Made by a program: the position numbers and the translations under genes. Below are positions 1-57,200 of a DNA stretch of 64,000 nucleotides, piece after piece; the first letter of the stretch is position 1, and each line of letters opens with the position of its first letter. Where the stretch lies: the IMG/VR virus record IMGVR_UViG_3300042307_000844; one strand, given 5' to 3'. Under the pieces are notes generated by a model. The model was not told the origin of the DNA. It saw nothing but the letters and a program-made list of their open reading frames with translations, and searched no databases. This stretch comes from a virus (taxonomy: Duplodnaviria > Caudoviricetes).

Positions 1-162
1 GGAGAGCTTTCCATTAAAGATGGTCAGAGATTAGCTGATCATTGTAATCTTGATATTACAATTGACAAGGAAATGACACTGGCTGATATTTTCAATTATC
101 ATAAAGAAAACACTTCTACGAAGTCGTTTGAGGATCGTCCAATGGGGTTTGGGAATTTTTAA
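1..162 (+). CDS. 3' end of a gene starting before the window, possibly an AAA+ ATPase
   Basis: Frame 1 is open from base 1 to TAA at 160-162 (GELSIKDGQRLADHCNLD...MTLADIFNY...RPMGFGNF*). The 'TLADIFN...GFG' tail resembles phage AAA ATPases; this is inference only. Confidence 0.45.
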   Translation, partial: GELSIKDGQRLADHCNLDITIDKEMTLADIFNYHKENTSTKSFEDRPMGFGNF

Positions 163-889
163 TTTTGTTTCCGCCTATGGCATTTTTATTTCCCATCAAA
201 CTTTGAGAAATTCTTTTTCTTCGTTCTTCTGGAACTGGGTTACCATAGCTTGGATTATTTTCACCGCTCAATTTTAGAGATAATTTTAATCTTTCGTTGG
301 GGTCTTCGTATCGTTTTCTCATTATTTCAGCAGTTTTTCTTTTTCCTTCTTCGGAATTAGCTCGGATTTTTTGTGATCTTCTCATATTTTCAATAGCTTC
401 TGGAGAAGCTTTAACCCCCAATCTAGACTTTCTAATATTTTCCCTATGCTCTTCTGTGAATGGTTTCTTTTTCTTACCCTTCTTAGATAAGCTCATATTT
501 ATTCTAGCTTCAGGTGATGCTTTCTTTCCTAATTTAGCTAGTGACATTTTTTTTCTACTTTCTTCACTATATTTTCTTCCAGTATTATCTAAACCTCTAG
601 TGCAAACATTATACCCAAGTGGAACCAAACAATTATATTTTATTATTAATTGTTCTTCTAAGTCATGTAAAAATGTTTTATTGACATCTGGTAGGTAGTA
701 TATTTCTACGTGGAAATTATTAATACCATGTTTTTTAAAAGCTTTTGAAATAACTTGGTGTTTATGGGATCGGTGTTCACTTATTCGTTTATGGATATTC
801 ATCGTTTCCCCAATATAATACTTCCCATTCACCTCATTGCGAATGATATACACCCCCGGTTTGTTCTCAAATTTATCAGTTAGTCTCAT
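116..889 (-). CDS. GIY-YIG homing endonuclease (Seg-like) with NUMOD3-type repeats
   Basis: GVYIIRN...YYIGET...R at the N-terminus, then repeated (S/T)EESRKKMS / SPEARINMS / TEEHRENIR / SPEAIENMR units. Confidence 0.9.
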   Translation of the reverse strand: MRLTDKFENKPGVYIIRNEVNGKYYIGETMNIHKRISEHRSHKHQVISKAFKKHGINNFHVEIYYLPDVNKTFLHDLEEQLIIKYNCLVPLGYNVCTRGLDNTGRKYSEESRKKMSLAKLGKKASPEARINMSLSKKGKKKKPFTEEHRENIRKSRLGVKASPEAIENMRRSQKIRANSEEGKRKTAEIMRKRYEDPNERLKLSLKLSGENNPSYGNPVPEERRKRISQSLMGNKNAIGGNKIKNSQTPLDDPQTTS

Positions 890-5509: not shown

Positions 5510-5929
5510 ATGACTTCCCACGACTTCAAAAATCTAGCACTATTATATGAAAGTATGGAAAACCATACCATGTCTCTGAACGATATTTATGGTGATATTG
5601 AATATGATGTTCCTGAAAACGAGGCACTTTATAGTGCTGTTGACCCCGAAATAGGGGATATCCAAATTCCGATCAAAACACTATCACCAGATCAATTGTT
5701 GAAATTGACGACATATAAAGATGATACCACGGTATTTCAAGCATATAAAGATTTTGCTGATAGGGATCAGAAGCAAATCGTAAATCATTACAAGAAAAAT
5801 TTAAATGAATTACACGATAACCCAATCGTCATTAATAATAACACGGCTTTGGATGGGTATCATCGAATTATTGCAGCTATTTTGATGAAACAATCTTTGA
5901 AAGTATTGGATGTGTCGGATATACAGTAG
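5510..5929 (+). CDS. ParB/Srx-like N-terminal domain protein (late)
   Basis: PIVINNNTALDGYHRIIAA motif; TAAATA 5 nt upstream. Confidence 0.65.
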   Translation: MTSHDFKNLALLYESMENHTMSLNDIYGDIEYDVPENEALYSAVDPEIGDIQIPIKTLSPDQLLKLTTYKDDTTVFQAYKDFADRDQKQIVNHYKKNLNELHDNPIVINNNTALDGYHRIIAAILMKQSLKVLDVSDIQ

Positions 5930-5930
5930 T

Positions 5931-6605
5931 TTAATTTAAAGGAATGCCATAAGTCTTGGCATATTCTTTCGATTTCTGGTCAAAAGGATAAATTGTCCCA
6001 TGCCACAGGAAATCGTTTCCCGAATCGATTGCCCCCAAAGGACGGACTTTCACAATCCACTCGCCCATATATTCGCCTTTGGAGTTTTTAAATTTTAATT
6101 TACCAGAAAACTGTGAAAATACATCGGTTGAATCCTCCCATCTACGCATGTAATCATCAAGTTGATGTTCGTCTTCCACGAAATTTTTCCAATTTAATCT
6201 AAGCAATTCTTCTGATGATGTTGCACACAGATTACAATATGCTTCATTCACCATAATATTAAGACCTTTGGAGGTAACTCTAAACGATGGTTTGGGATTG
6301 AGCCAAAACATAGCCTCTATTTCAGCTTTGATTATTTTCACAGAATCCCGCATGGAACCCCCACCATTCGGGGATATTTCATATTCAACATTTTTTAAAC
6401 GATCATCAATATTTGACACAGTTCCTTGAATATTTTTTAAAGATTCTGGTATGGAATTCCGAGATTTAATATATTCCTGACGTTCCTTATATTTTTCGAC
6501 AATAAAAGTCCTGAGTTGTTTCCAAGTCAATATAATGGCACCAATCGCCCCTAGAATAATTTTTATAAAATTGGCGTGTTGTTGAACAAAATCGTAAAAA
6601 TCCAT
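5931..6605 (-). CDS. Membrane-anchored protein with coiled coil and C-terminal PAS-like domain (possible holin/lysis regulator)
   Basis: Hydrophobic IKIILGAIGAIILTW, coiled coil to PNGGGSMRD, then the PAS-like NIMVNEAYCNL...LNWKNFVEDE. Confidence 0.6.
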   Translation of the reverse strand: MDFYDFVQQHANFIKIILGAIGAIILTWKQLRTFIVEKYKERQEYIKSRNSIPESLKNIQGTVSNIDDRLKNVEYEISPNGGGSMRDSVKIIKAEIEAMFWLNPKPSFRVTSKGLNIMVNEAYCNLCATSSEELLRLNWKNFVEDEHQLDDYMRRWEDSTDVFSQFSGKLKFKNSKGEYMGEWIVKVRPLGAIDSGNDFLWHGTIYPFDQKSKEYAKTYGIPLN

Positions 6606-28790: not shown

Positions 28791-29093
28791 CCCTAGAACA
28801 ACAAAGAATTGCCATCGCGGAAGAATCCGGCAGAGAATAACGAAATCACCATATTGCACGGAGGAGTTCCGGTAGATATCGGAAGTATTTGGGAAAATCG
28901 AGAAAAATATAATAAAAAAATTTTTTTCAATGGGGGGGAATTTCGATTTTTTATAGAAAAAAAATAAAAATTTATATGTCATATTTTTTCAAATGGTAAT
29001 TTTTATATTTTTTATAAAAATAATTTTAGCCATGGCACCCCACCCCATACCCCCCCATCCCTAGTTTTTAAAGCAAATCGAAGTAGCCCCCCC

Positions 29094-29156
29094 CTAACAG
29101 TTAGATATGGCATATCTAACAGAAAGCATTTATATATCATTTGCATATCTAACAGA
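29094..29156. repeat. Inverted and direct repeats in the non-coding boundary
   Basis: GTTAGATATG-G-CATATCTAAC palindrome at 29100-29120; GCATATCTAACAGA at 29110 and 29143. Confidence 0.85.
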
Positions 29157-29172
29157 TCATATATCATGACAC

Positions 29173-29216
29173 AAAAAAAGCCCCTTGGCATACCTTCAAG
29201 AGATATGCCAAGGGGC
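29173..29216 (-). terminator. Strong intrinsic terminator ending the early array
   Basis: 13-bp stem GCCCCTTGGCATA/TATGCCAAGGGGC plus T7 on the minus strand. Confidence 0.9.
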
Positions 29217-32200
29217 GAGGGGATCAGGCGAAGTCGGCAAGGAACTCTTTCAGGGTGCTGCCGTTGACCGTGACAGTCTCACCGTCATAACAATCAACTT
29301 GTGCGTAGAACGTGAAGGCTCCCCGCTTGCGGGACATGTAAACGGTTTCGGAATCTTGCGCGTTCCAACGAAACCCCTTCTTTTCAAGGACGGTGACAAC
29401 GGCAACGAATTGTGGTAATGTGGTGGTATTCATGGTAGTAGCATCTTACCCTAGTTTTTATAGGGTGATGATCTCCGCATCCTTCAGAGTGGCGGCGAAC
29501 GCTTGCGCTTCCTCCAAGGTAGCGTAGCGGGAGAAGCCGAAGGCATCGCAAACCTTGAACTTCTTTGCGTCCTCCTTGGCGCGATAGGCATCGAAGGCTG
29601 CGGCTTCTGCGCGTTGTGCTTCCTCCGATGGAGTGCAGCGTCCGGTGAAGTCATACTCAGGTGTCAGGTATCTCATGGTAGTAGCATCTTACCCTAGTTT
29701 TTATTCTCCACAGGCTTTCAGGAAAGTGTCAATCAGTCGCAACCATGCAACATCATCTCGTCCTCATTCATCACTTCATCCTCACTCTCAACATCACGAA
29801 CAGCGAGGGCAAACGCTTGTGCGTAATCCATTCCATCCCCTAGTCCACGGTGGATGAAGTTTTCGCCGGAGAAATTCCAATGCCCGATCTCAACTCGAAC
29901 CTTGGCGAACCTTGCACAAGCCCAATGAGGTTGGACATCCTTGGAGATGACAGTGAAGGTTTCTTTGTAGCGTGGGGAATAATAGGTGGTGGTCATGGTG
30001 GTGTTGATGGTGTTGGTCACAAGGGCATCTTACCCTAGTTTTTAAACGCTAGGACGTTGAGCGTGTCGGATGCGCTCCCCCCGTTTTGATCATGCTTCGT
30101 AAGCCATCCACGTTCCCGCGTCATATGGCTCCGCATACAGCCCCAAGGACTTCAGGGCTTTCTGGACTTCAGGATGCACCTGCTCGTCGTGGTAGCAGTC
30201 GAAGAAGGGCATTCCATCCGTGTGAAGATTCCCTTCTTGGCGAAACCAGATGCCGCCTTCCTCCCCATCCCATTCGGTGGTGGATACGGCTTTGATCTTG
30301 GGGAACAACTCATTCAGCTTGGCGATTTTGTTTTTCATGGTGAGGCTATCTTAGGCTAGTTTTTAAAAGGGGGATCGAACCCCTTTCGCTTATCAGATCA
30401 GGCTGAAGACCAGCAACCAGCTTGGACTACCGTCCGGGCCGTGACCGTCAGACTCCACACGCTTACCCGTAGGAGTCTTGCAAACTCCATCCATTCCCCA
30501 CCGTTCCAAGGAGGACATCGATGGGGCTTTGAATGCGCTTGTGATACGCACCTGAAGCGGTTCGGGATGCGCTGGCGAGTGAACAAGGCAACGGCTGTCC
30601 TTGCCCTCGATGAAGGAGACGGGCAAGCCCTTGGCAAGTGTGGAACCGTCTTTGAGTAGGATGTCTTTTTGTGTTTTCATGGTAGTAGGATTCTAGGCTA
30701 GTTTTTAACCCTCGTTGTTATAGGTGGTTGCGTGAGACTTCTTTGTAAAGGCGCGGTATCCGCCACCCACCCGCACAAGGTAACGGTAGTTTGGGTGAGG
30801 ATTGTCCTTGGCGTTATTGTCAAACGTGGTGATACCGTTCTCAATGGAAAGGTCAGCATCCATGTCAATCTCATAGGATTGAATGAACACGTTCGGGAAC
30901 TCTTCGGATTTGTATCGGGTGATCATGGTGAGGCTATTTTGTGCTAGTTTTTATTCGCGTTTTCCCAGAGGGTTTTGATTTCCCATTTGTCCCATATGAT
31001 TTGATCTTCATCGGTGACATCGTTCCCCACGTAGAGAACGGTTTTCCCAAGCTTTGCGGGACGGGTTCCGGTTCCGGGTCGTCCATACAAGCCAGAGGTT
31101 TCCCCACAGTAAAGCGTATGGGTTGCGCCTTGTGCCTTTGACCAGTCACAAGGTGCGCCCCCATAGACTTCATGGGTCTTGCCATAACTCTTTTCACGGA
31201 CTCCCGTGATGGAGGTTTTACGGGCGCGGAGGATGTCTTCCAATGGGTAGTTGCTCATGGTGCAATCAGTCTAGGCTAGTTTTTATCAGGCGTATTCTGC
31301 TCCGATCAATTCGTTACCCCAGCGAACGGGGCGACGAGCGAAATTTGAGATGGCAATTGCCTCATCCCTTGTGATGGCATAGGCAAGGACTTGTCCGCTG
31401 GCGGTGAATAACATATCGTTCATGGTGCAATCAGTCTAGGCTAGTTTTTAAAACCACAGATAAAGGAAAAACAGGAGAAGGGCGAAAGGCCACAAGCCAT
31501 AGGCAAGCAAGCCGACAATGGCGAGGATAAAAATGAGTTCTTTCATGTTAGTTTTTAAATGGTTTGCCCCTCCCCGGAACCACCCGGAGAGGGGACTTTT
31601 ACCATGTTACCCCACGAAAGAGAAACCCGCTTGGGCGATTGCGCCCCGAACCATGCCTTGTTGCTTTGAAGTTGTGACGCTGTAGCGGTCAGGATTGACC
31701 CAGAAACCGCCTTCCACACGCTTGGCAAGGGGGAAGTGGTAGCCATAGCTGTAAAGGGTGTCCCCTTCGATGAACATGCTCTTCAGGCTATTCTTGCCCT
31801 TGGTTGCGCCGGATACGAATGCTTTAACGATTTGTTTGTTGGTCATGGTGGTGTGTGTTGTTGGTGTTGGTTACGAGATCAGTCTAGGCTAGTTTTTATC
31901 CAACCGTTACCGTTGTCCCAAAGGGAAGGTGCGCGGTGAATGGAAAGACCTTGGCAATGTCCACCTTGCCATCGCTGGAAAGGGTGAACTTGGAATGGCG
32001 GGTGTTTCCGACAGTGATGGAGACGAGTATCAGTTTCATGGTGAGGCTATTTTGGTTTAGTTTTTATGCGATGGAGTCGATGAATGCCTTGGCTTCCGTG
32101 GTTGTCAAGGTGTGTCCGATCTTCCGCATGTCAGGGGAATAGATGTCAAATCCATCCCCGATCATGCCCGACTTAATGATTGTATGTGTTTTGTATTTCA

Positions 32201-34660
32201 TGGTGCAGCTATCTTACGCTAGTTTTTAAGGGGATTGAACCCTTAGGTTTGTTTGATTAACGGCCATTCAAAACCATCTTAATGGCTTTCACGGTGTCGG
32301 GCTTCCACCCGTAGCAACGGGCATCCGTCTCCAGATTCATGGCGACTCCGAAAGGCATCCCCTTTCCTTGTTGACCAAAGGTGAAGTTCTCCACCGCGAT
32401 ACGTTTGGCCTTTGGATACTTGGCCATTGCTTTCTCGACTGCTTGTGTGTGTTCGTTCATGGTAATGTGATGTTAGTCTAGTTTTTAAGCAAGGCGGGAC
32501 AACCAGACTTCGCTCGCCTTTGGCAATCCCCTCTCAGCAATCGCACCGTCCCGCATGACTTCCTTTGTCATGGCTTTTCTTGCGCTTTGAAGGGCTTTGA
32601 TTTGAGCCAAGGAAGGGGCGCGATAGCTTGGGAAAACCGCTTGAATCGCCTTCTCTTCCGCTTGCAAGTTGCGGTGATTCTCTTCCGCGCTCTTGAAGGA
32701 ATCAACATAGGGCTTAAATGTAAGTAAACGCTTACCTTTCACCTTTTCCCCGTCCTTAAAGAGATTGTAGCATCCTACGCCAAGGGGAACGATGTTCGCT
32801 TCACGGGCGGGGACGATCTTTTCGATTTCAGGTATTATATCAGATATATGTTTCATGGTAGTAGCAGTTTACGCTAGTTTTTAAAAGGGGGATTGAACCC
32901 CTTTCGGGGTTGGTTTAATATCCGGCAAACTTGAATTTCACCTCTCCGAACATATCGTCTTCGAAGTAAAACCAGCCACCCTTAAAGGTTATTTCCTGAT
33001 GCTCCCAAAGGATAGGGAAATCGGTGGATACCTCATCGAAAAGGATGAAATGGGGAGGAGTTCCAAACTCATCGGCGGGGTGATATTCAAATTGTCCCAG
33101 AACGATGTTGCCATCGACATAGGTTTCAACTGCGATGGGGGCGGTGCTTGTTAGTTGTATTTTCATAACGAGACGATCTTACTCTAGTTTTTATCCAATC
33201 AGGATGAACAGGATGATGGGGGTGAACGCGAACAGGAAGAACGCAGCGAGGGTGTCAAGGATGAGTTGTTTCATGGTGCAGCTATCTTAATCTAGTTTTT
33301 AAGAGAAGAGTCTGTCCACATGGCGAACAATCCAAGGCTGGTTTCTGTCCTTCTCGATGGCAGCAAAGATTTCCTTGCCCTTGTGCATCACCCGGACAGT
33401 CCCGGCTTGCCAGTCCTTTTCCACGGGCAGTCCCGCGCTTTCCAGAGCTTTTACCATTGCTTTAACGTGTTCTTTTGTAAGTAATTTGGTCATGGTTAAA
33501 TCTTAGTCTAGTTTTTATTCCTCTTCTTCCTCTTCTTCCTCGTCCTCTTCTTCTTCCTCGATGAATCCTTCGCGCTCGCAAAGGTCTTGAACATCGGCTT
33601 CCGACATGTAGGAGCAGAAGGCACTGATCACGGTATCCTTATCAAGAATACCCTCTTCGATCATTTCAAGCAGTTGGTTTGTGTATTGTCTGGTCATGGT
33701 GTTATCTTAATCTAGTTTTTAAACGATCACATATTCCCCGCGCTCCAATAGAACCCCCACAGGATCATCCTTTCGCTCATGGATAAAAATCAATCCTTTT
33801 TCCTTCCAATCGGGTTGATTGGTGGCATGGGAGAATCCATAGGTCTTGCGAACATCAAGAACAATATCAGTTCCCAACAGCTTGTAATTATGTAGTGGCT
33901 TTGCTTTCATGGTGAGGCTATCTTACGCTAGTTTTTATCGCTTCAAATTCATTTGAATATTTTCGCTCATCCGCATTCACCCTTGCCATTTCAGCAAGGA
34001 CAAAATCCTCGACAAGTTGCGTTTGCTCTCCCGTGATAATGCCTTGTTTGTAAAGGTTGTATGCAAGGAACTCAAAGGTCGTGGTGAGCTTTCCAACAAG
34101 ATATGGGTAACAGATAGGTGCTTCGTTCATAGTGACAATATCTTAGGCTAGTTTTTAAATGGTATCACAACCCGCCTTCGGTTATGTTCAGATGTTGAAT
34201 AGGTTGAGGATCTCAACTTTCATGTTTTCCAGATACGCATCCATGTGTTCCGCATCGTATTCCATGGAGACTTCCATCTCAAAGTAATTGGAGATTTCAT
34301 TTTGATATTGCAGAATGATATCTGCGATTTTTTCTTTCATGCTGTCAGTGTTTTGTGGCGTGTTCATGGTGACAATATCTTAGGCTAGTTTTTAAATGAA
34401 TTGGGCTACTACTGTGGAGCTTCCTACCAATTCTTCCTTGAAAAAGCAGTCATTTCTATCAGAATTCCATCCACTGAAAAGGAACTTTCGCCCCTCGTAG
34501 GTGAGAACTTTCTTACTAATTTTCTTTACATCATCCCATCCGTTAGGGACTTCGATATAAAGCCATCCACGCCCATCGGTGGAAACACGGTAATCTGCTT
34601 TGATTTCTTTCGGGTTAATGGTGATGTTGGACATGGCTAAATCTTAATCTAGTTTTTAAA

Positions 34661-54447: not shown

Positions 54448-55004
54448 TCAACCCAATTGGAATTATCCTCACCAGTGGCAAAATTACCTTCGGTTTCCTT
54501 GGAAGTTACGATGATAATTTCAATTTCCTTTTTACCAAACCATTTCAGAATGGTTCCAGATGGTACGGTTCCAATCATATTATCCGCTTGTCGTTTGATA
54601 TCAACCAATCGTGTTTGTGCCATTTGCCAATCCTTTCGTCCTGCAACCACGATGTTCTGGAGATTCTTCAGCGTTTCAATACCTTGGATACTTGGGACTG
54701 CTTCCGTCACCATACCTACAGTGACAAGTTGACCATCCCCGGCAGTATTACCCCCTCTTGCATCGGCATAACCCGTGATGATATTGGTAAGGGCTTCCAC
54801 TTCCTTGTCCGATACGTTGGCAGCTTCCCGAATGGATTTTCGAGTGTTATCAAGGATATTCTTATTATCCGTTTGTGCTGCTTTTGCAAGATTCTCAAAT
54901 CTTGTGTAAGAGTTGAAGCTTCCCAGAACGGAAACCAAAAGGATTACTCCAAGGAGGATGACACCTCCAAGAACCGACAGTGTTGTAATTAGCGTTTTGC
55001 TCAT
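54444..55004 (-). CDS. LemA-like membrane-anchored protein
   Basis: N-terminal TM, helical body, C-terminal NMIGTVPSGTILKWFG. Confidence 0.6.
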   Translation of the reverse strand: MSKTLITTLSVLGGVILLGVILLVSVLGSFNSYTRFENLAKAAQTDNKNILDNTRKSIREAANVSDKEVEALTNIITGYADARGGNTAGDGQLVTVGMVTEAVPSIQGIETLKNLQNIVVAGRKDWQMAQTRLVDIKRQADNMIGTVPSGTILKWFGKKEIEIIIVTSKETEGNFATGEDNSNWVE

Positions 55005-55386
55005 TGTGTTATTGTGTTCTAGTTTTTAAGAATGTAGTAAGGAAAGCGCATAATTGATTCCGGCATGGTTATGGACACTTATTGGGGGTCATAAGTTACT
55101 GTTCTCCGGAAATGATTCCCCACGTCAGGGACTTTTCAGCTTCGACCATGATCGGGCCGATCCACGTCCGGCGCGTCCGAGTCCATCCGTGATGGTAGTA
55201 GCTAACATCCGTGTGGTAGAAGTCCCGCCCGCTGGATGAGAAGCCGCAGCGTCCCCACCATTTGCCCAGCCACCATATTTTCAGGCACCAGCGGTGTTTC
55301 TTTTCCGCCGTGAGGCAGAGTCCGTTCCATTTTGTGATTCGTATCGTCATATCGTGATTTGTAGGTTGGTTGGTAATTCGGAAGAG

Positions 55387-55481
55387 CGAGAACAAGCCAC
55401 GGCACACGACCGAGACTAGCTCTCCAGTTTCATTTCAAAGGCTTCTCATTGGCTCCCGGCGCGTGCGTTGTGACGTTAGCG
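55387..55481 (-). mobile_element. attC-like site (95 bp)
   Basis: Minus: CGCTAAC-GTCACAACGCACGCGCCG...CGGTCGTGTGCCGTGGCTT-GTTCTCG. Confidence 0.8.
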
Positions 55482-55701
55482 AAGAAATACTCAGCGTCCT
55501 TGCCCAGCTGCTCGATGGCGTCCTCGGCGTTGTCGTCGCAGTGTCCCATGTCCTCCTCTTTTTCGTTTCCAGACGGATCGAGCGGGTAGGTGCTGAACAC
55601 CCATTTTCCGGGCATTCCGTCAGTCCACCCTCCTCGAACGTATTTCCCGCCGGGGCGGATTCCAAGACCTAGACGTTTGGCTTCTTTCTGTATTCGAGCA
55701 T

Positions 55702-55735
55702 TCATGGTCGGCGTGCCTCCACTTGATCGTTCGCC
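55702..55735 (-). mobile_element. Truncated attC (left arm only)
   Basis: GGCGAAC-GATCAAGTGGAGGCACGCCGACC runs straight into the next ATG. Confidence 0.65.
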
Positions 55736-55958
55736 GTATGCTTCGTGTGAGCCGAGTAGATCAGCAGCGCCACGGGAGCGATGCCGAAATGCCACTCGCT
55801 GACATTCCCGCAGAGTCGGCACTTGTAGGTTCCAAGTCCGTCGCCATTGCTCGCCAGCCAGTAGGCTTGATCGTTGAGCATGTCGTGGCACTTCGGGCAG
55901 TAGGTCACGCATCCACAGTTCTGGATGATGTCGCGCTCTCTGCGTGTCCACCGCCAAC

Positions 55959-56087
55959 GGCGAACCAGACGCTGGACCCAACTGCATGGGCCTTCCTGTT
56001 CTTCTCTGAGTTTTCTGTGATTCGGCATATTATTTCTCCGGTTGAGTCTTCCCCCGCCCATGCAGCGGGTCAGCTTGGTCGTTCGTC
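55959..56087 (-). mobile_element. attC-like site (129 bp)
   Basis: Minus: GACGAAC-GACCAAGCTGACCCGCTGCATGGGC...GCCCATGCAGTTGGGTCCAGCGTCTG-GTTCGCC. Confidence 0.85.
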
Positions 56088-56315
56088 GGAAGAAAGGTCA
56101 TCAGCCGCTTGCAGTTTTCGGCGTCCCGGAATCGGTCGTAGATCGCCCACCATTCGGGGTCGGTTTTACCCACGATCAGTGAGAGTTCGTTGCGGCGGTC
56201 GAGTAGTTCGTGATGCCAGATATCGCTTGGATCGTAGCCGAGATTCCACGCGACGTTTTTCTCTATCTGGATTTCCATGCGTTTGAGTTGCATCCGACGT
56301 TTCAAAATCAAAGAC

Positions 56316-56439
56316 GACGAACAAGGCGTGAGAGAGCAACGGGCGGGGTGTTTTGATTTCGTAGTTTTCATGTAGTTATTGAGTCGGGGGCTTCGGCGGT
56401 GCGGCGTTGTCCGCCCGTGCCTCCACATTGGCGTTATGC
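56316..56439 (-). mobile_element. attC-like site (124 bp)
   Basis: Minus: GCATAAC-GCCAATGTGGAGGCACGGGCGG...CCGCCCGTTGCTCTCTCACGCCTT-GTTCGTC. Confidence 0.85.
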
Positions 56440-56525
56440 AGAATGCCAGTCCCCCACTTGGTAGAGCTTCCATTTGCCGTCAGGTCACGCATTTTCGCGG
56501 TGGTTAGTGTTTTATTTATTAAAAA

Positions 56526-56726
56526 GGTGGAGCAAGTGGGTCTTACCCCCACTCTAGGCTGATCATGCCCACAATCTACTCAACATATCTGGCTTTCACC
56601 ACGACTGGCTACTCGATGCGTCAGGAGGAAGGGTTTCGTCTTTCCTTCTTTCTTGCCTGATAAACTAATCCAGAGATACTTCAAGCGACTCTGCTGTGTG
56701 TCTAAGATTTTCCACACCGTTGCTCC
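56526..56726 (-). ncRNA. 201-nt tRNA-like structured RNA
   Basis: GGAGCAA/TTGCTCC-A-CC acceptor, adjacent 5-bp/7-nt arm GTGGG-GGTAAGA-CCCAC, several internal hairpins, followed by a T tract. Confidence 0.7.
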
Positions 56727-56738
56727 ATTGGAAAATTG

Positions 56739-57200
56739 TTAGTCAACGATACCTTCGTTGATTTCGTAGATATTGGAAGGCTTGCCACGGGTTCCGCTAG
56801 GTTTCTTCACCTTGCCTACCACGCTTGCCTTGCCCATCTTGATTAGGGTTTGAAGAAATCCGTTCACATACACGGTATCTACTCCCAGCTTCTCACTCAG
56901 TTCCTTTACTGTTGTTTTCATAATGTTATTGTATTCTAGTTTTTGTTTGATTTTCAGATAGAAATTTGTTGCTCCAATGTTTCGGAAGAATGCTCTATCT
57001 CCTTCGATTGATTCCGGTTCTTGGGTTGTCCAAATGAAAAGGTCTTCCTGATCATCGTCTTCCGGTGCTTGCTCAAATACGATCTTATATTGGTCTTCCC
57101 CAATGTCAACGATTTTTGCGTCCTCCCCAATGGAATCTTTCCAATAGGAGATTTCCAGAGGTTTGTTAAGCAGGGCTTGGGGATTGAATTGGGGGTGCAT
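56739..57200 (-). CDS. Read-through fusion of two array genes; the C-terminal 60 aa (from ATG 56921) is wHTH-like
   Basis: The internal junction reads CAAAAACTAG-AA-TACAAT instead of TAAAAACTA, so there is no stop. Confidence 0.7.
   Translation of the reverse strand: MHPQFNPQALLNKPLEISYWKDSIGEDAKIVDIGEDQYKIVFEQAPEDDDQEDLFIWTTQEPESIEGDRAFFRNIGATNFYLKIKQKLEYNNIMKTTVKELSEKLGVDTVYVNGFLQTLIKMGKASVVGKVKKPSGTRGKPSNIYEINEGIVD

Follow-up and report, generated by a model that had tools for sequence, protein, structure and literature searches.

Introduction

The mosaicism of phage genomes is usually explained by homologous or illegitimate recombination. For T4-type phages, Arbiol et al. are said to have described, in 2010, PeSL (promoter-early stem-loop) cassettes, conserved repeats with a promoter that recombine by homology. 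Integron cassettes depend on attC sites, whose rules are read on the bottom strand: a 5′-AAC in the R′ box, the cut falling between its A and its C, a central spacer of 5–6 nt that stays unpaired and, on the L″ (3′) arm, one extrahelical base at position 16 and another, a conserved T, 6 bp further on at 23/24; an extra bulged base at position 20 is optional, and sites are 57–141 nt long (Nivina et al. 2016, PMC5027507). That attC sites occur in lytic phages is already known, since 17 clusters of attC sites lacking an integron integrase (CALINs) have been predicted by models in 10,705 cultured-phage genomes, and IntI1 recombines five of six tested attC sites from virulent phages (Qi, Rajabal, Ghaly, Tetu and Gillings 2023, PMC9892861). 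The same study reported no natural exchange and described co-oriented cassettes as typical of bacterial arrays. Here we describe a GC-rich island on the minus strand of a viral record (IMGVR_UViG_3300042307_000844), of which a stretch of 64,000 nt, hereafter the window, was analysed. With a probability of about 0.74, we take the island to be a genuine integron-type cassette array without an integrase, that is, a CALIN, in a lytic T4-like freshwater phage.

What carries this reading is a set of direct observations: the architecture of the sites, junctions that fall within a shared AAC, alternative arrays at one backbone position, cassettes shared with other phages and the lack of a recombinase in cis. 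The action of a host IntI, the source of the enzyme and any present activity of the array are matters of inference.

Sites with the architecture of attC

The window belongs to an uncultured T4-like myovirus with a gp20-type portal, a gp15-like protein, ribonucleotide reductase, 12 tRNA genes and ~41% GC, and the carrier is a lytic T4-like freshwater phage; the whole region is present in 18 lake-water metagenome runs from 2018–2024. All four open reading frames (ORFs) of the island, P0001 to P0004, lie on the minus strand, the same as the adjoining genes. The island and its sites are the following.

55102..56433, minus strand: foreign island; four units, two backbone junctions; 55.9% GC against 41.3% for the window
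56316..56439, minus strand: attC-type site 1 (P0004 cassette); R′ GCATAAC, spacer GCCAAT, arm GTGGAGGCACGGGCGG, 62-nt loop
Site 1, 3′ side, minus strand: arm CCGCCCG-T-TGC-T-CTC-T-CAC, spacer GCCTT, R″ GTTCGTC
55959..56087, minus strand: attC-type site 2 (P0003 cassette); R′ GACGAAC, spacer GACCAA, arm GCTGACCCGCTGCATGGGC, 64-nt loop
Site 2, 3′ side, minus strand: arm GCCCATGCAG-T-TGGGT-C-CAGC, spacer GTCTG, R″ GTTCGCC
55387..55481, minus strand: attC-type site 3 (P0001 cassette); R′ CGCTAAC, spacer GTCACA, arm ACGCACGCGCCGGG, 40-nt loop
Site 3, 3′ side, minus strand: arm with bulged C and T, spacer GCTTG, R″ GTTCTCG
55707..55731, minus strand: half site; AAC, spacer GATCAA, 5′ arm GTGGAGGCACGCCGA, no matching 3′ arm

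Counted between their AAC and GTT ends, the three complete sites run from 56435 to 56320, from 56083 to 55963 and from 55477 to 55391 (116, 121 and 87 nt). All three have a 6×5 spacer, a terminal bulged T and loops of 40–74 nt, and the positions and spacing of their bulged bases match the attC rules in 3/3 cases, the first bulged base being T, C and C, respectively. Site 1 has three bulged T at positions 16, 20 and 24. The ends of units are complementary as well: GTTCGTCG (56081–56088) pairs with CGACGAAC (56315–56322) over 8 bp, GTTCGCCGT (55729–55737) with ACGGCGAAC (55957–55965) over 9 bp and GTTCTC (55101–55106) with GAGAAC (55388–55393) over 6 bp. The preliminary description of this locus, made from the letters alone, had reported three full attC-like repeats and a half site framed by AAC and GTT, cassette ends that are reverse complements and a GC content above that of the flanks; the repeats were recovered within 1–4 nt of where it had placed them, the complementarity is exact over the 8, 9 and 6 bp given above, and the difference in GC is as listed. 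The octamer GTTCGYCG or its complement occurs four times in the 1.3-kb island and three times in the remaining 62.7 kb.

The half site directly abuts the P0002 ATG (55705) and gives no template match; a complete site in another phage contig (L010) matches it at 91% identity over 34 nt, through its 5′ arm and the beginning of its loop. With no 3′ arm, and with no GTT end complementary to its GCTAAC end, the P0002 unit is not a proper cassette and is the unit of the window that fails end pairing. Across this defective half site, P0003 ends and P0002 begins within one ATGA (55702–55705), which suggests translational coupling.

A home-made template scan that encodes the published attC rules (maximum score 14; PMC5027507) was checked on eight real attC sites and gave 14, 13.5 and 13 for sites 1, 2 and 3. 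For sites 1 and 2, the minimum-free-energy DNA fold is the same hairpin; site 3 is thermodynamically weak, and its arms pair in the centroid fold only. Neither strand of the 64 kb held a comparable match elsewhere, nor did the 207-kb genome of a relative outside the same locus. After dinucleotide shuffling, 0.25 matches of at least 12.5 were found per 64-kb window and 0.001 per island shuffle. As a positive control, five class 1 integrons were taken from plasmids: the attC sites of aadA1, aac(6′)-IIa, blaGES-5, aac(3)-Ib, aac(6′)-Ib4 and orfF scored 13–14 and those of dfrA12 and blaIMP-1 scored 11.5. A 6×5 spacer together with G…T bulges was present in 6/8 control sites, and 8/8 lie antisense to the resistance gene. 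Raised GC also marks another part of the window (29000–33000, ~50%), which contains no convincing attC-type site; its best match (32896–32990, plus strand, 12.5/14) has atypical bulged bases and is at chance level.

One backbone position, two arrays

One relative is a complete 207-kb genome with terminal repeats (G001, whose locus is L001). Its flanks are 96–99% identical to those of the window, and between the same two junctions it holds two different small genes with hairpins of their own, whose paired cassette ends match over 8 and 8 bp. Homology between the two breaks exactly at the plus-strand GTT triplets 55101–55103 and 56433–56435. The junction can thus be placed within the shared AAC triplet, a placement that sequence resolves to the triplet and not to a single bond. 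More distant relatives (L002 and L003) lack the entire stretch 55028–56743.

Two features that adjoin the junctions extend this picture.

56376..56492, minus strand: 38-codon leader frame; first 21 codons in the backbone and common to G001
55060..55101, minus strand: downstream junction, backbone side; C AGTAACTTATGACCCCCAATAAGTGTCC..., with a small hairpin ACTTAT/ATAAGT

For the remainder of the leader frame the codons come from the first attC, namely from its 5′ arm and its loop, and there G001 differs. At the other end, the backbone at 55060..55101 is identical in the window and G001 despite the different adjoining cassettes, and by its position it is a candidate attI-equivalent or secondary site.

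Further observations concern the surroundings of the island. Just upstream of the array, ~240 nt (56500–56743, minus strand) comprising a hairpin followed by a T run, as well as an AT-rich box, are common to the window and G001 and lacking in L002 and L003. In the same place, L003 has 115 nt (5860–5975) with tRNA-like pieces (ggtgtagtggtagcac ... ggttcgattcc); ARAGORN and Rfam called no tRNA or tmRNA in either of these two stretches. The motif TAAAAACTAGA (54990–55030 in the window, 5960–5990 in L003), located ~15 nt before the ATG of a gene for a 186-aa virion protein, is conserved in relatives both with and without the island. At the far end of the window (116–889, minus strand), a free-standing homing-endonuclease gene of the GIY-YIG + NUMOD3 type lies beside the tail-sheath-stabiliser and portal genes.

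Cassettes shared with unrelated phages

Searches with the island proteins returned 38 close homologues of P0003 and 14 of P0004, and every recovered context was a phage contig. In three of them (L009, L010 and L012), units with P0003 or P0004 are 87–90% identical to the window at the DNA level, homology ending at the AAC, and in the compared region these carriers have no other detectable DNA similarity to the window. The contexts include a 63-kb phage with polA and a PD-(D/E)XK gene, phages with DnaB and an Sf6-type terminase, and lambda-like phages with a GpA-type terminase. Judged by their 87–90% identity, the transfers of these cassettes are not recent.

At the protein level, conservation ends in both families exactly at the Asn encoded by the AAC. 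The P0004 homologues (61–81% identity over the alignment) are conserved through ...FLPTN and the P0003 family up to ...HTKDTAN, and beyond these points every tail is different. Adjacent sites obey what we call the chain rule: GTTxxxx after one site is complementary to xxxxAAC before the next. Examined in the window, G001, L009, L010, L012, L036, L038 and L041, it held over at least four extra bases in 10/17 adjacent pairs versus 5.6% of control pairs, and the failures are located where an intervening site was missed. We read this rule as the signature of a circular cassette with paired R′ and R″.

Across 12 phage loci, the scan found 29 distinct sites on the sense strand versus three on the other strand. 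Their 14-nt arms come in 25 different sequences (mean arm identity 0.42), and 28 of the 29 sites have T as the last bulged base. Site 2 is conserved whole, along with its gene, in L009 and L012. Equivalents of site 1 in G001, L010, L036 and L041 have kept the outer parts, and their inner stems differ yet remain complementary (CGGGCGG/CCGCCCG, TCGCTGCC/GGCAGCGA, CGCCGA/TCGGCG and AGAG/CTCT); MAFFT aligned the outer parts and not the inner stems, and the complementarity of the arms was counted by script.

Several carriers contributed observations of their own. In four lake runs, short contigs are ~92% identical to the first attC site alone (56310–56423), with unrelated sequence on both sides, and the site-1 family is therefore present in other genomes of the same lakes. 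L036 has a cassette with an MT-A70 DNA methyltransferase gene (209–822; ends GTTAGCGGT / ACCGCTAAC), whose ATG lies in the attC loop and whose first 10 codons come from the 3′ arm; beside this cassette, L036 and L037 differ by whole cassettes. A cassette in L038 (1100–2147) carries a 336-aa DUF4365 gene on the opposite strand, the orientation that is normal in bacterial integrons, and sits between two sites that obey end complementarity (GTTAGGCA / TGCCTAAC). In lambda-like phages with a P0004 homologue, attC-type sites bracket small genes between terminase and portal (L041 7256–7643 and L043 3624–4011), and an inverted copy of one such site (L041 8547–8629) is found next to a masked (N) stretch.

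Inverted genes and translated sites

The bulged bases of the window sites are on the 3′ arm of the coding (minus) strand and the exchange point is at its 5′ AAC, so that the minus strand is the attC bottom strand. The cassette genes are therefore inverted relative to those of bacterial integrons: their coding strand is the recombinogenic bottom strand. Read on this strand, a unit consists of C, the attC hairpin, the gene and xxxxAA, with the attC located 5′ of its own gene. The four ORFs are arranged as follows.

56030..56371, minus strand: ORF P0004; cassette 56433→56082; conserved core M27 (56293) to N97
55702..56028, minus strand: ORF P0003; cassette 56081→55730; small helix and zinc-ribbon protein
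55430..55705, minus strand: ORF P0002; segment 55729→55476; ATG overlaps the P0003 stop (ATGA)
55096..55350, minus strand: ORF P0001; cassette 55475→55102; start 38 nt past its attC

Stops lie in the loops of all three sites and ATGs in those of sites 1 and 2, so the arms are translated, just as the preliminary description had it. The loop of site 1 holds the stop of the leader frame (56378–56376) and the P0004 ATG (56371), that of site 2 the P0004 stop TAA (56032–56030), a GGAGA and the P0003 ATG (56028), and that of site 3 the P0002 stop (55432–55430). Where the preliminary description spoke of an upstream stop and a downstream ATG sharing a loop, its positions were right and one correction applies: the genes being inverted, the ATG in a loop, which in many cases follows a GGAGA or GAGGAG, is that of the attC's own cassette, and the upstream gene borrows no more than its tail and stop. 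The upstream gene reads across the junction into its neighbour's 5′ arm until the first stop, and it is because of this run into the neighbouring arm that the protein tails are variable.

P0004 illustrates both ends of the arrangement. Its N-terminal extension is encoded in its own attC and differs between homologues, the conserved core beginning at M27, and its last 16 codons and stop are in the attC of the next cassette. P0003 starts from a GGAGA and ATG within its own attC loop, and its tail beyond N100 is encoded by the half site. P0001 has its ATG (55350) outside its site, and its stop TAA (55098–55096) lies in the phage backbone just beyond the junction.

For the four ORFs, Pfam and PHROGs gave a single weak match, to a zinc-ribbon/HNH-like PHROG for P0003, whose structure model (pLDDT 72.6) found generic zinc-ribbon matches only; the P0004 model (pLDDT 50) is below usable quality for a structure search. 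A megablast search of the region against 50,697 phage records found no match, and an Rfam scan, in a database that has no attC model, returned only noise.

Recombinase and origin of the cassettes

In G001 (207 kb), G003 and G004 (63 kb each), all three of them complete carrier genomes, there is no match to the families of the tyrosine recombinases, serine recombinases and Y1 transposases (PF00589, PF00239 and PF01797). The partial carrier records have no recombinase either, apart from a tyrosine recombinase in one unrelated record, and no enzyme of these kinds, PF00589 included, turned up among 18 window ORFs scanned against Pfam, including all 14 of at least 250 aa. The search for intI that the preliminary description had called for thus fits an integrase-less CALIN. 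Three sites lie within 1.05 kb and no intI was found, as in a CALIN, and the combination of intI, attI and Pc that makes a complete integron was not recovered. With no recombinase in cis, the array is therefore a CALIN, and the recombinase would have to come in trans.

As for the source of the cassettes, the preliminary description had proposed their capture from a host integron pool, an idea that gained no support: no relative of the P0003 and P0004 families was found in the representative genomes of 185,579 prokaryote species, and all their recovered contexts are phage. The pool, as far as these records reveal it, is a phage pool and not a known bacterial one.

Weighing the alternatives

A number of points count against an integron-type array. 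The R boxes (GCATAAC/GTTCGTC, GACGAAC/GTTCGCC and CGCTAAC/GTTCTCG; mostly GTTCGYC) depart from the RYYYAAC/GTTRRRY consensus, so that of the attC geometry given in the preliminary description the AAC/GTT ends held and the R-box consensus did not. The first bulged base is mostly C (17/29 phage sites), G being usual in bacterial sites. Folding energies of the DNA are not better than those of shuffles (z of −0.3, −1.8 and +1.3 versus −4.9 for the aadA1 attC), which is because the loops are long. The template was adjusted partly after the window sites had been seen; the second G001 site (L001 5582–5685) fits it poorly, as does the P0003-type site of L012. The P0002 unit has no 3′ arm, and no integrase, host or bacterial copy of a cassette was identified. 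Finally, only two array types were found among 20 contigs with an identical flanking protein, and the lake metagenomes of 2018–2024 show no change in the array, so that in this lineage it may be a static relic.

Some of these points would suit a phage-specific, attC-like system served by a non-integron recombinase, be it a Xer-type enzyme of the host or a phage protein not yet recognised as such, with the likeness to attC being convergent or very distant. The deviating R boxes and first bulge, the uniform inversion of the genes, unlike in bacterial arrays, and the lack of cassette-gene relatives in prokaryote genomes all speak in its favour. Yet the geometry is that of class 1 attC (6×5 spacer, 3 bp, bulge, 6 bp, T bulge), the junction lies in the 5′ AAC of the strand that has the 3′-arm bulges, as with IntI, and the three complete carrier genomes contain no tyrosine recombinase of any kind, which makes such a system unlikely. 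We hold it to be more improbable still that the hairpins are expression signals—for translation start, RNA stability or termination—and that the genes are shuffled by homologous recombination between hairpin repeats. Ribosome-binding sites and ATGs do lie inside loops or 5′ arms, several sites have sequence in common, e.g. GTGGAGGCAC and CACGCCTTGTT, and recombination in T4-type phages is very active. However, the junctions share AAC only, with unrelated sequence on one side, the complementarity of unit ends has no role in expression or homologous exchange, the arms are too diverse for homologous recombination, and the strand-specific bulge pattern matches attC. PeSL-type homologous shuffling was rejected on similar grounds, namely the AAC-limited junctions, the end complementarity and the diverse arms.

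That the inverted repeats arose by chance in a GC-rich foreign insert and are devoid of function is a reading already effectively refuted: a GC-rich stretch of 1.4 kb commonly contains inverted repeats of 8–10 bp and the folding z-scores are weak, but three template matches were observed versus 0.001 per island shuffle, other phages show the same architecture at 29 distinct sites, and homology boundaries coincide with sites. An IS200/IS605-type element was considered and dismissed, the three complete carrier genomes lacking PF01797, with one hairpin per gene and ends that are complementary across the gene; a homing-endonuclease insert was likewise considered and rejected. The integron-type cassette array forming a CALIN, as first proposed in the preliminary description, is supported by the architecture, the controls with real attC sites, the shuffles, the relatives and the unrelated phages.

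A proposed route of exchange

Under this integron-type reading, an IntI-type tyrosine recombinase would be supplied in trans, from a host integron or a co-infecting element, and would act on the folded single-stranded attC of replicating, recombining or transcribed phage DNA. Recombination of attC with attC would release cassettes as circles, which would then enter any phage genome present in that cell, either through another attC or through a GTT secondary site. One predicted circle junction is ...CCGACGAA joined to CGCCAATGTGG, and the predicted empty site is ...CTGCATAA|CAGTAACTTATG. Excision or circle joints were not found in the assembled contigs of the 18 lake runs, of which only the contigs are kept, so that this cannot show their absence. 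Searches of the metagenome contigs for the predicted empty site and for the upstream anchor of the array gave 0 matches, and since the window's own anchor was missed as well, these negatives are uninformative; an 18-mer anchor had, among viral contigs, one chance match besides the G001 type, and a 17-mer of the shared 5′ arm had two chance matches.

It is an even bet, in our estimate, that unrelated freshwater phages, among them a T4-like myovirus, lambda-like phages and 63-kb phages of the polA type, draw on one phage-to-phage cassette pool with a polarity of its own and with attC as a start module, a pool absent from sequenced bacterial integrons, which would constitute a phage-adapted branch of integrons that borrows its integrase from the host cell. 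Excisable arrays would have to share polarity and expressed arrays would have to follow phage transcription, leading to one polarity for the whole pool. As to why inversion won, one may speculate that the non-template strand exposed by transcription is the folding strand, or that start signals are displayed by the loop of the hairpin.

The uniform inversion of phage cassettes raises a new question as to its reason, with the possible consequences that the folding strand is the sense strand and that attC serves as a translation-start element. More generally, a precise, structure-guided reaction, the same as in bacterial integrons, appears here to move single accessory genes of lytic phages from one phage to an unrelated one, which offers a concrete and testable mechanism of gene exchange for the plastic regions of phage genomes and carries what has been published on phage CALINs beyond prediction, to natural exchange.

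Comparison with known systems

The PeSL cassettes, as they are reportedly organised, resemble the array in that small accessory genes occupy plastic regions of T4-type phages, are bracketed by stem-loops and are exchanged between phages as modules. Here, in contrast, the sequence is diverse and the structure conserved, junctions are site-specific at AAC and unit ends are complementary.

The CALINs of cultured phages (Qi et al. 2023, PMC9892861) are closer: they, too, are integrase-less attC arrays with small genes in lytic phages, and methyltransferase cargo, represented here by MT-A70 in L036, is common to both. What differs is the comparative evidence, the inversion of every gene relative to its attC and the carrier, an uncultured T4-like lake myovirus. 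Literature searches yielded no paper on comparative evidence of cassette exchange among phages, nor one on uniform gene inversion, start signals within attC or occurrence in a T4-like lake phage.

With classical integrons, both class 1 and sedentary chromosomal, the array shares the AAC/GTT ends, the junction at AAC, complementary R′ and R″, the spacer, the terminal T with its 6-bp spacing, a variable terminal loop, a length within 57–141 nt and one gene per cassette. It differs from them in having no intI, attI or Pc, in GTTCGYC R boxes, a first extrahelical base that is mostly C and long, weakly structured loops, and, most visibly, in its organisation: genes are on the bottom strand, the attC stands 5′ of the gene and provides start signals, and the tail and stop of each gene come from the neighbouring unit.

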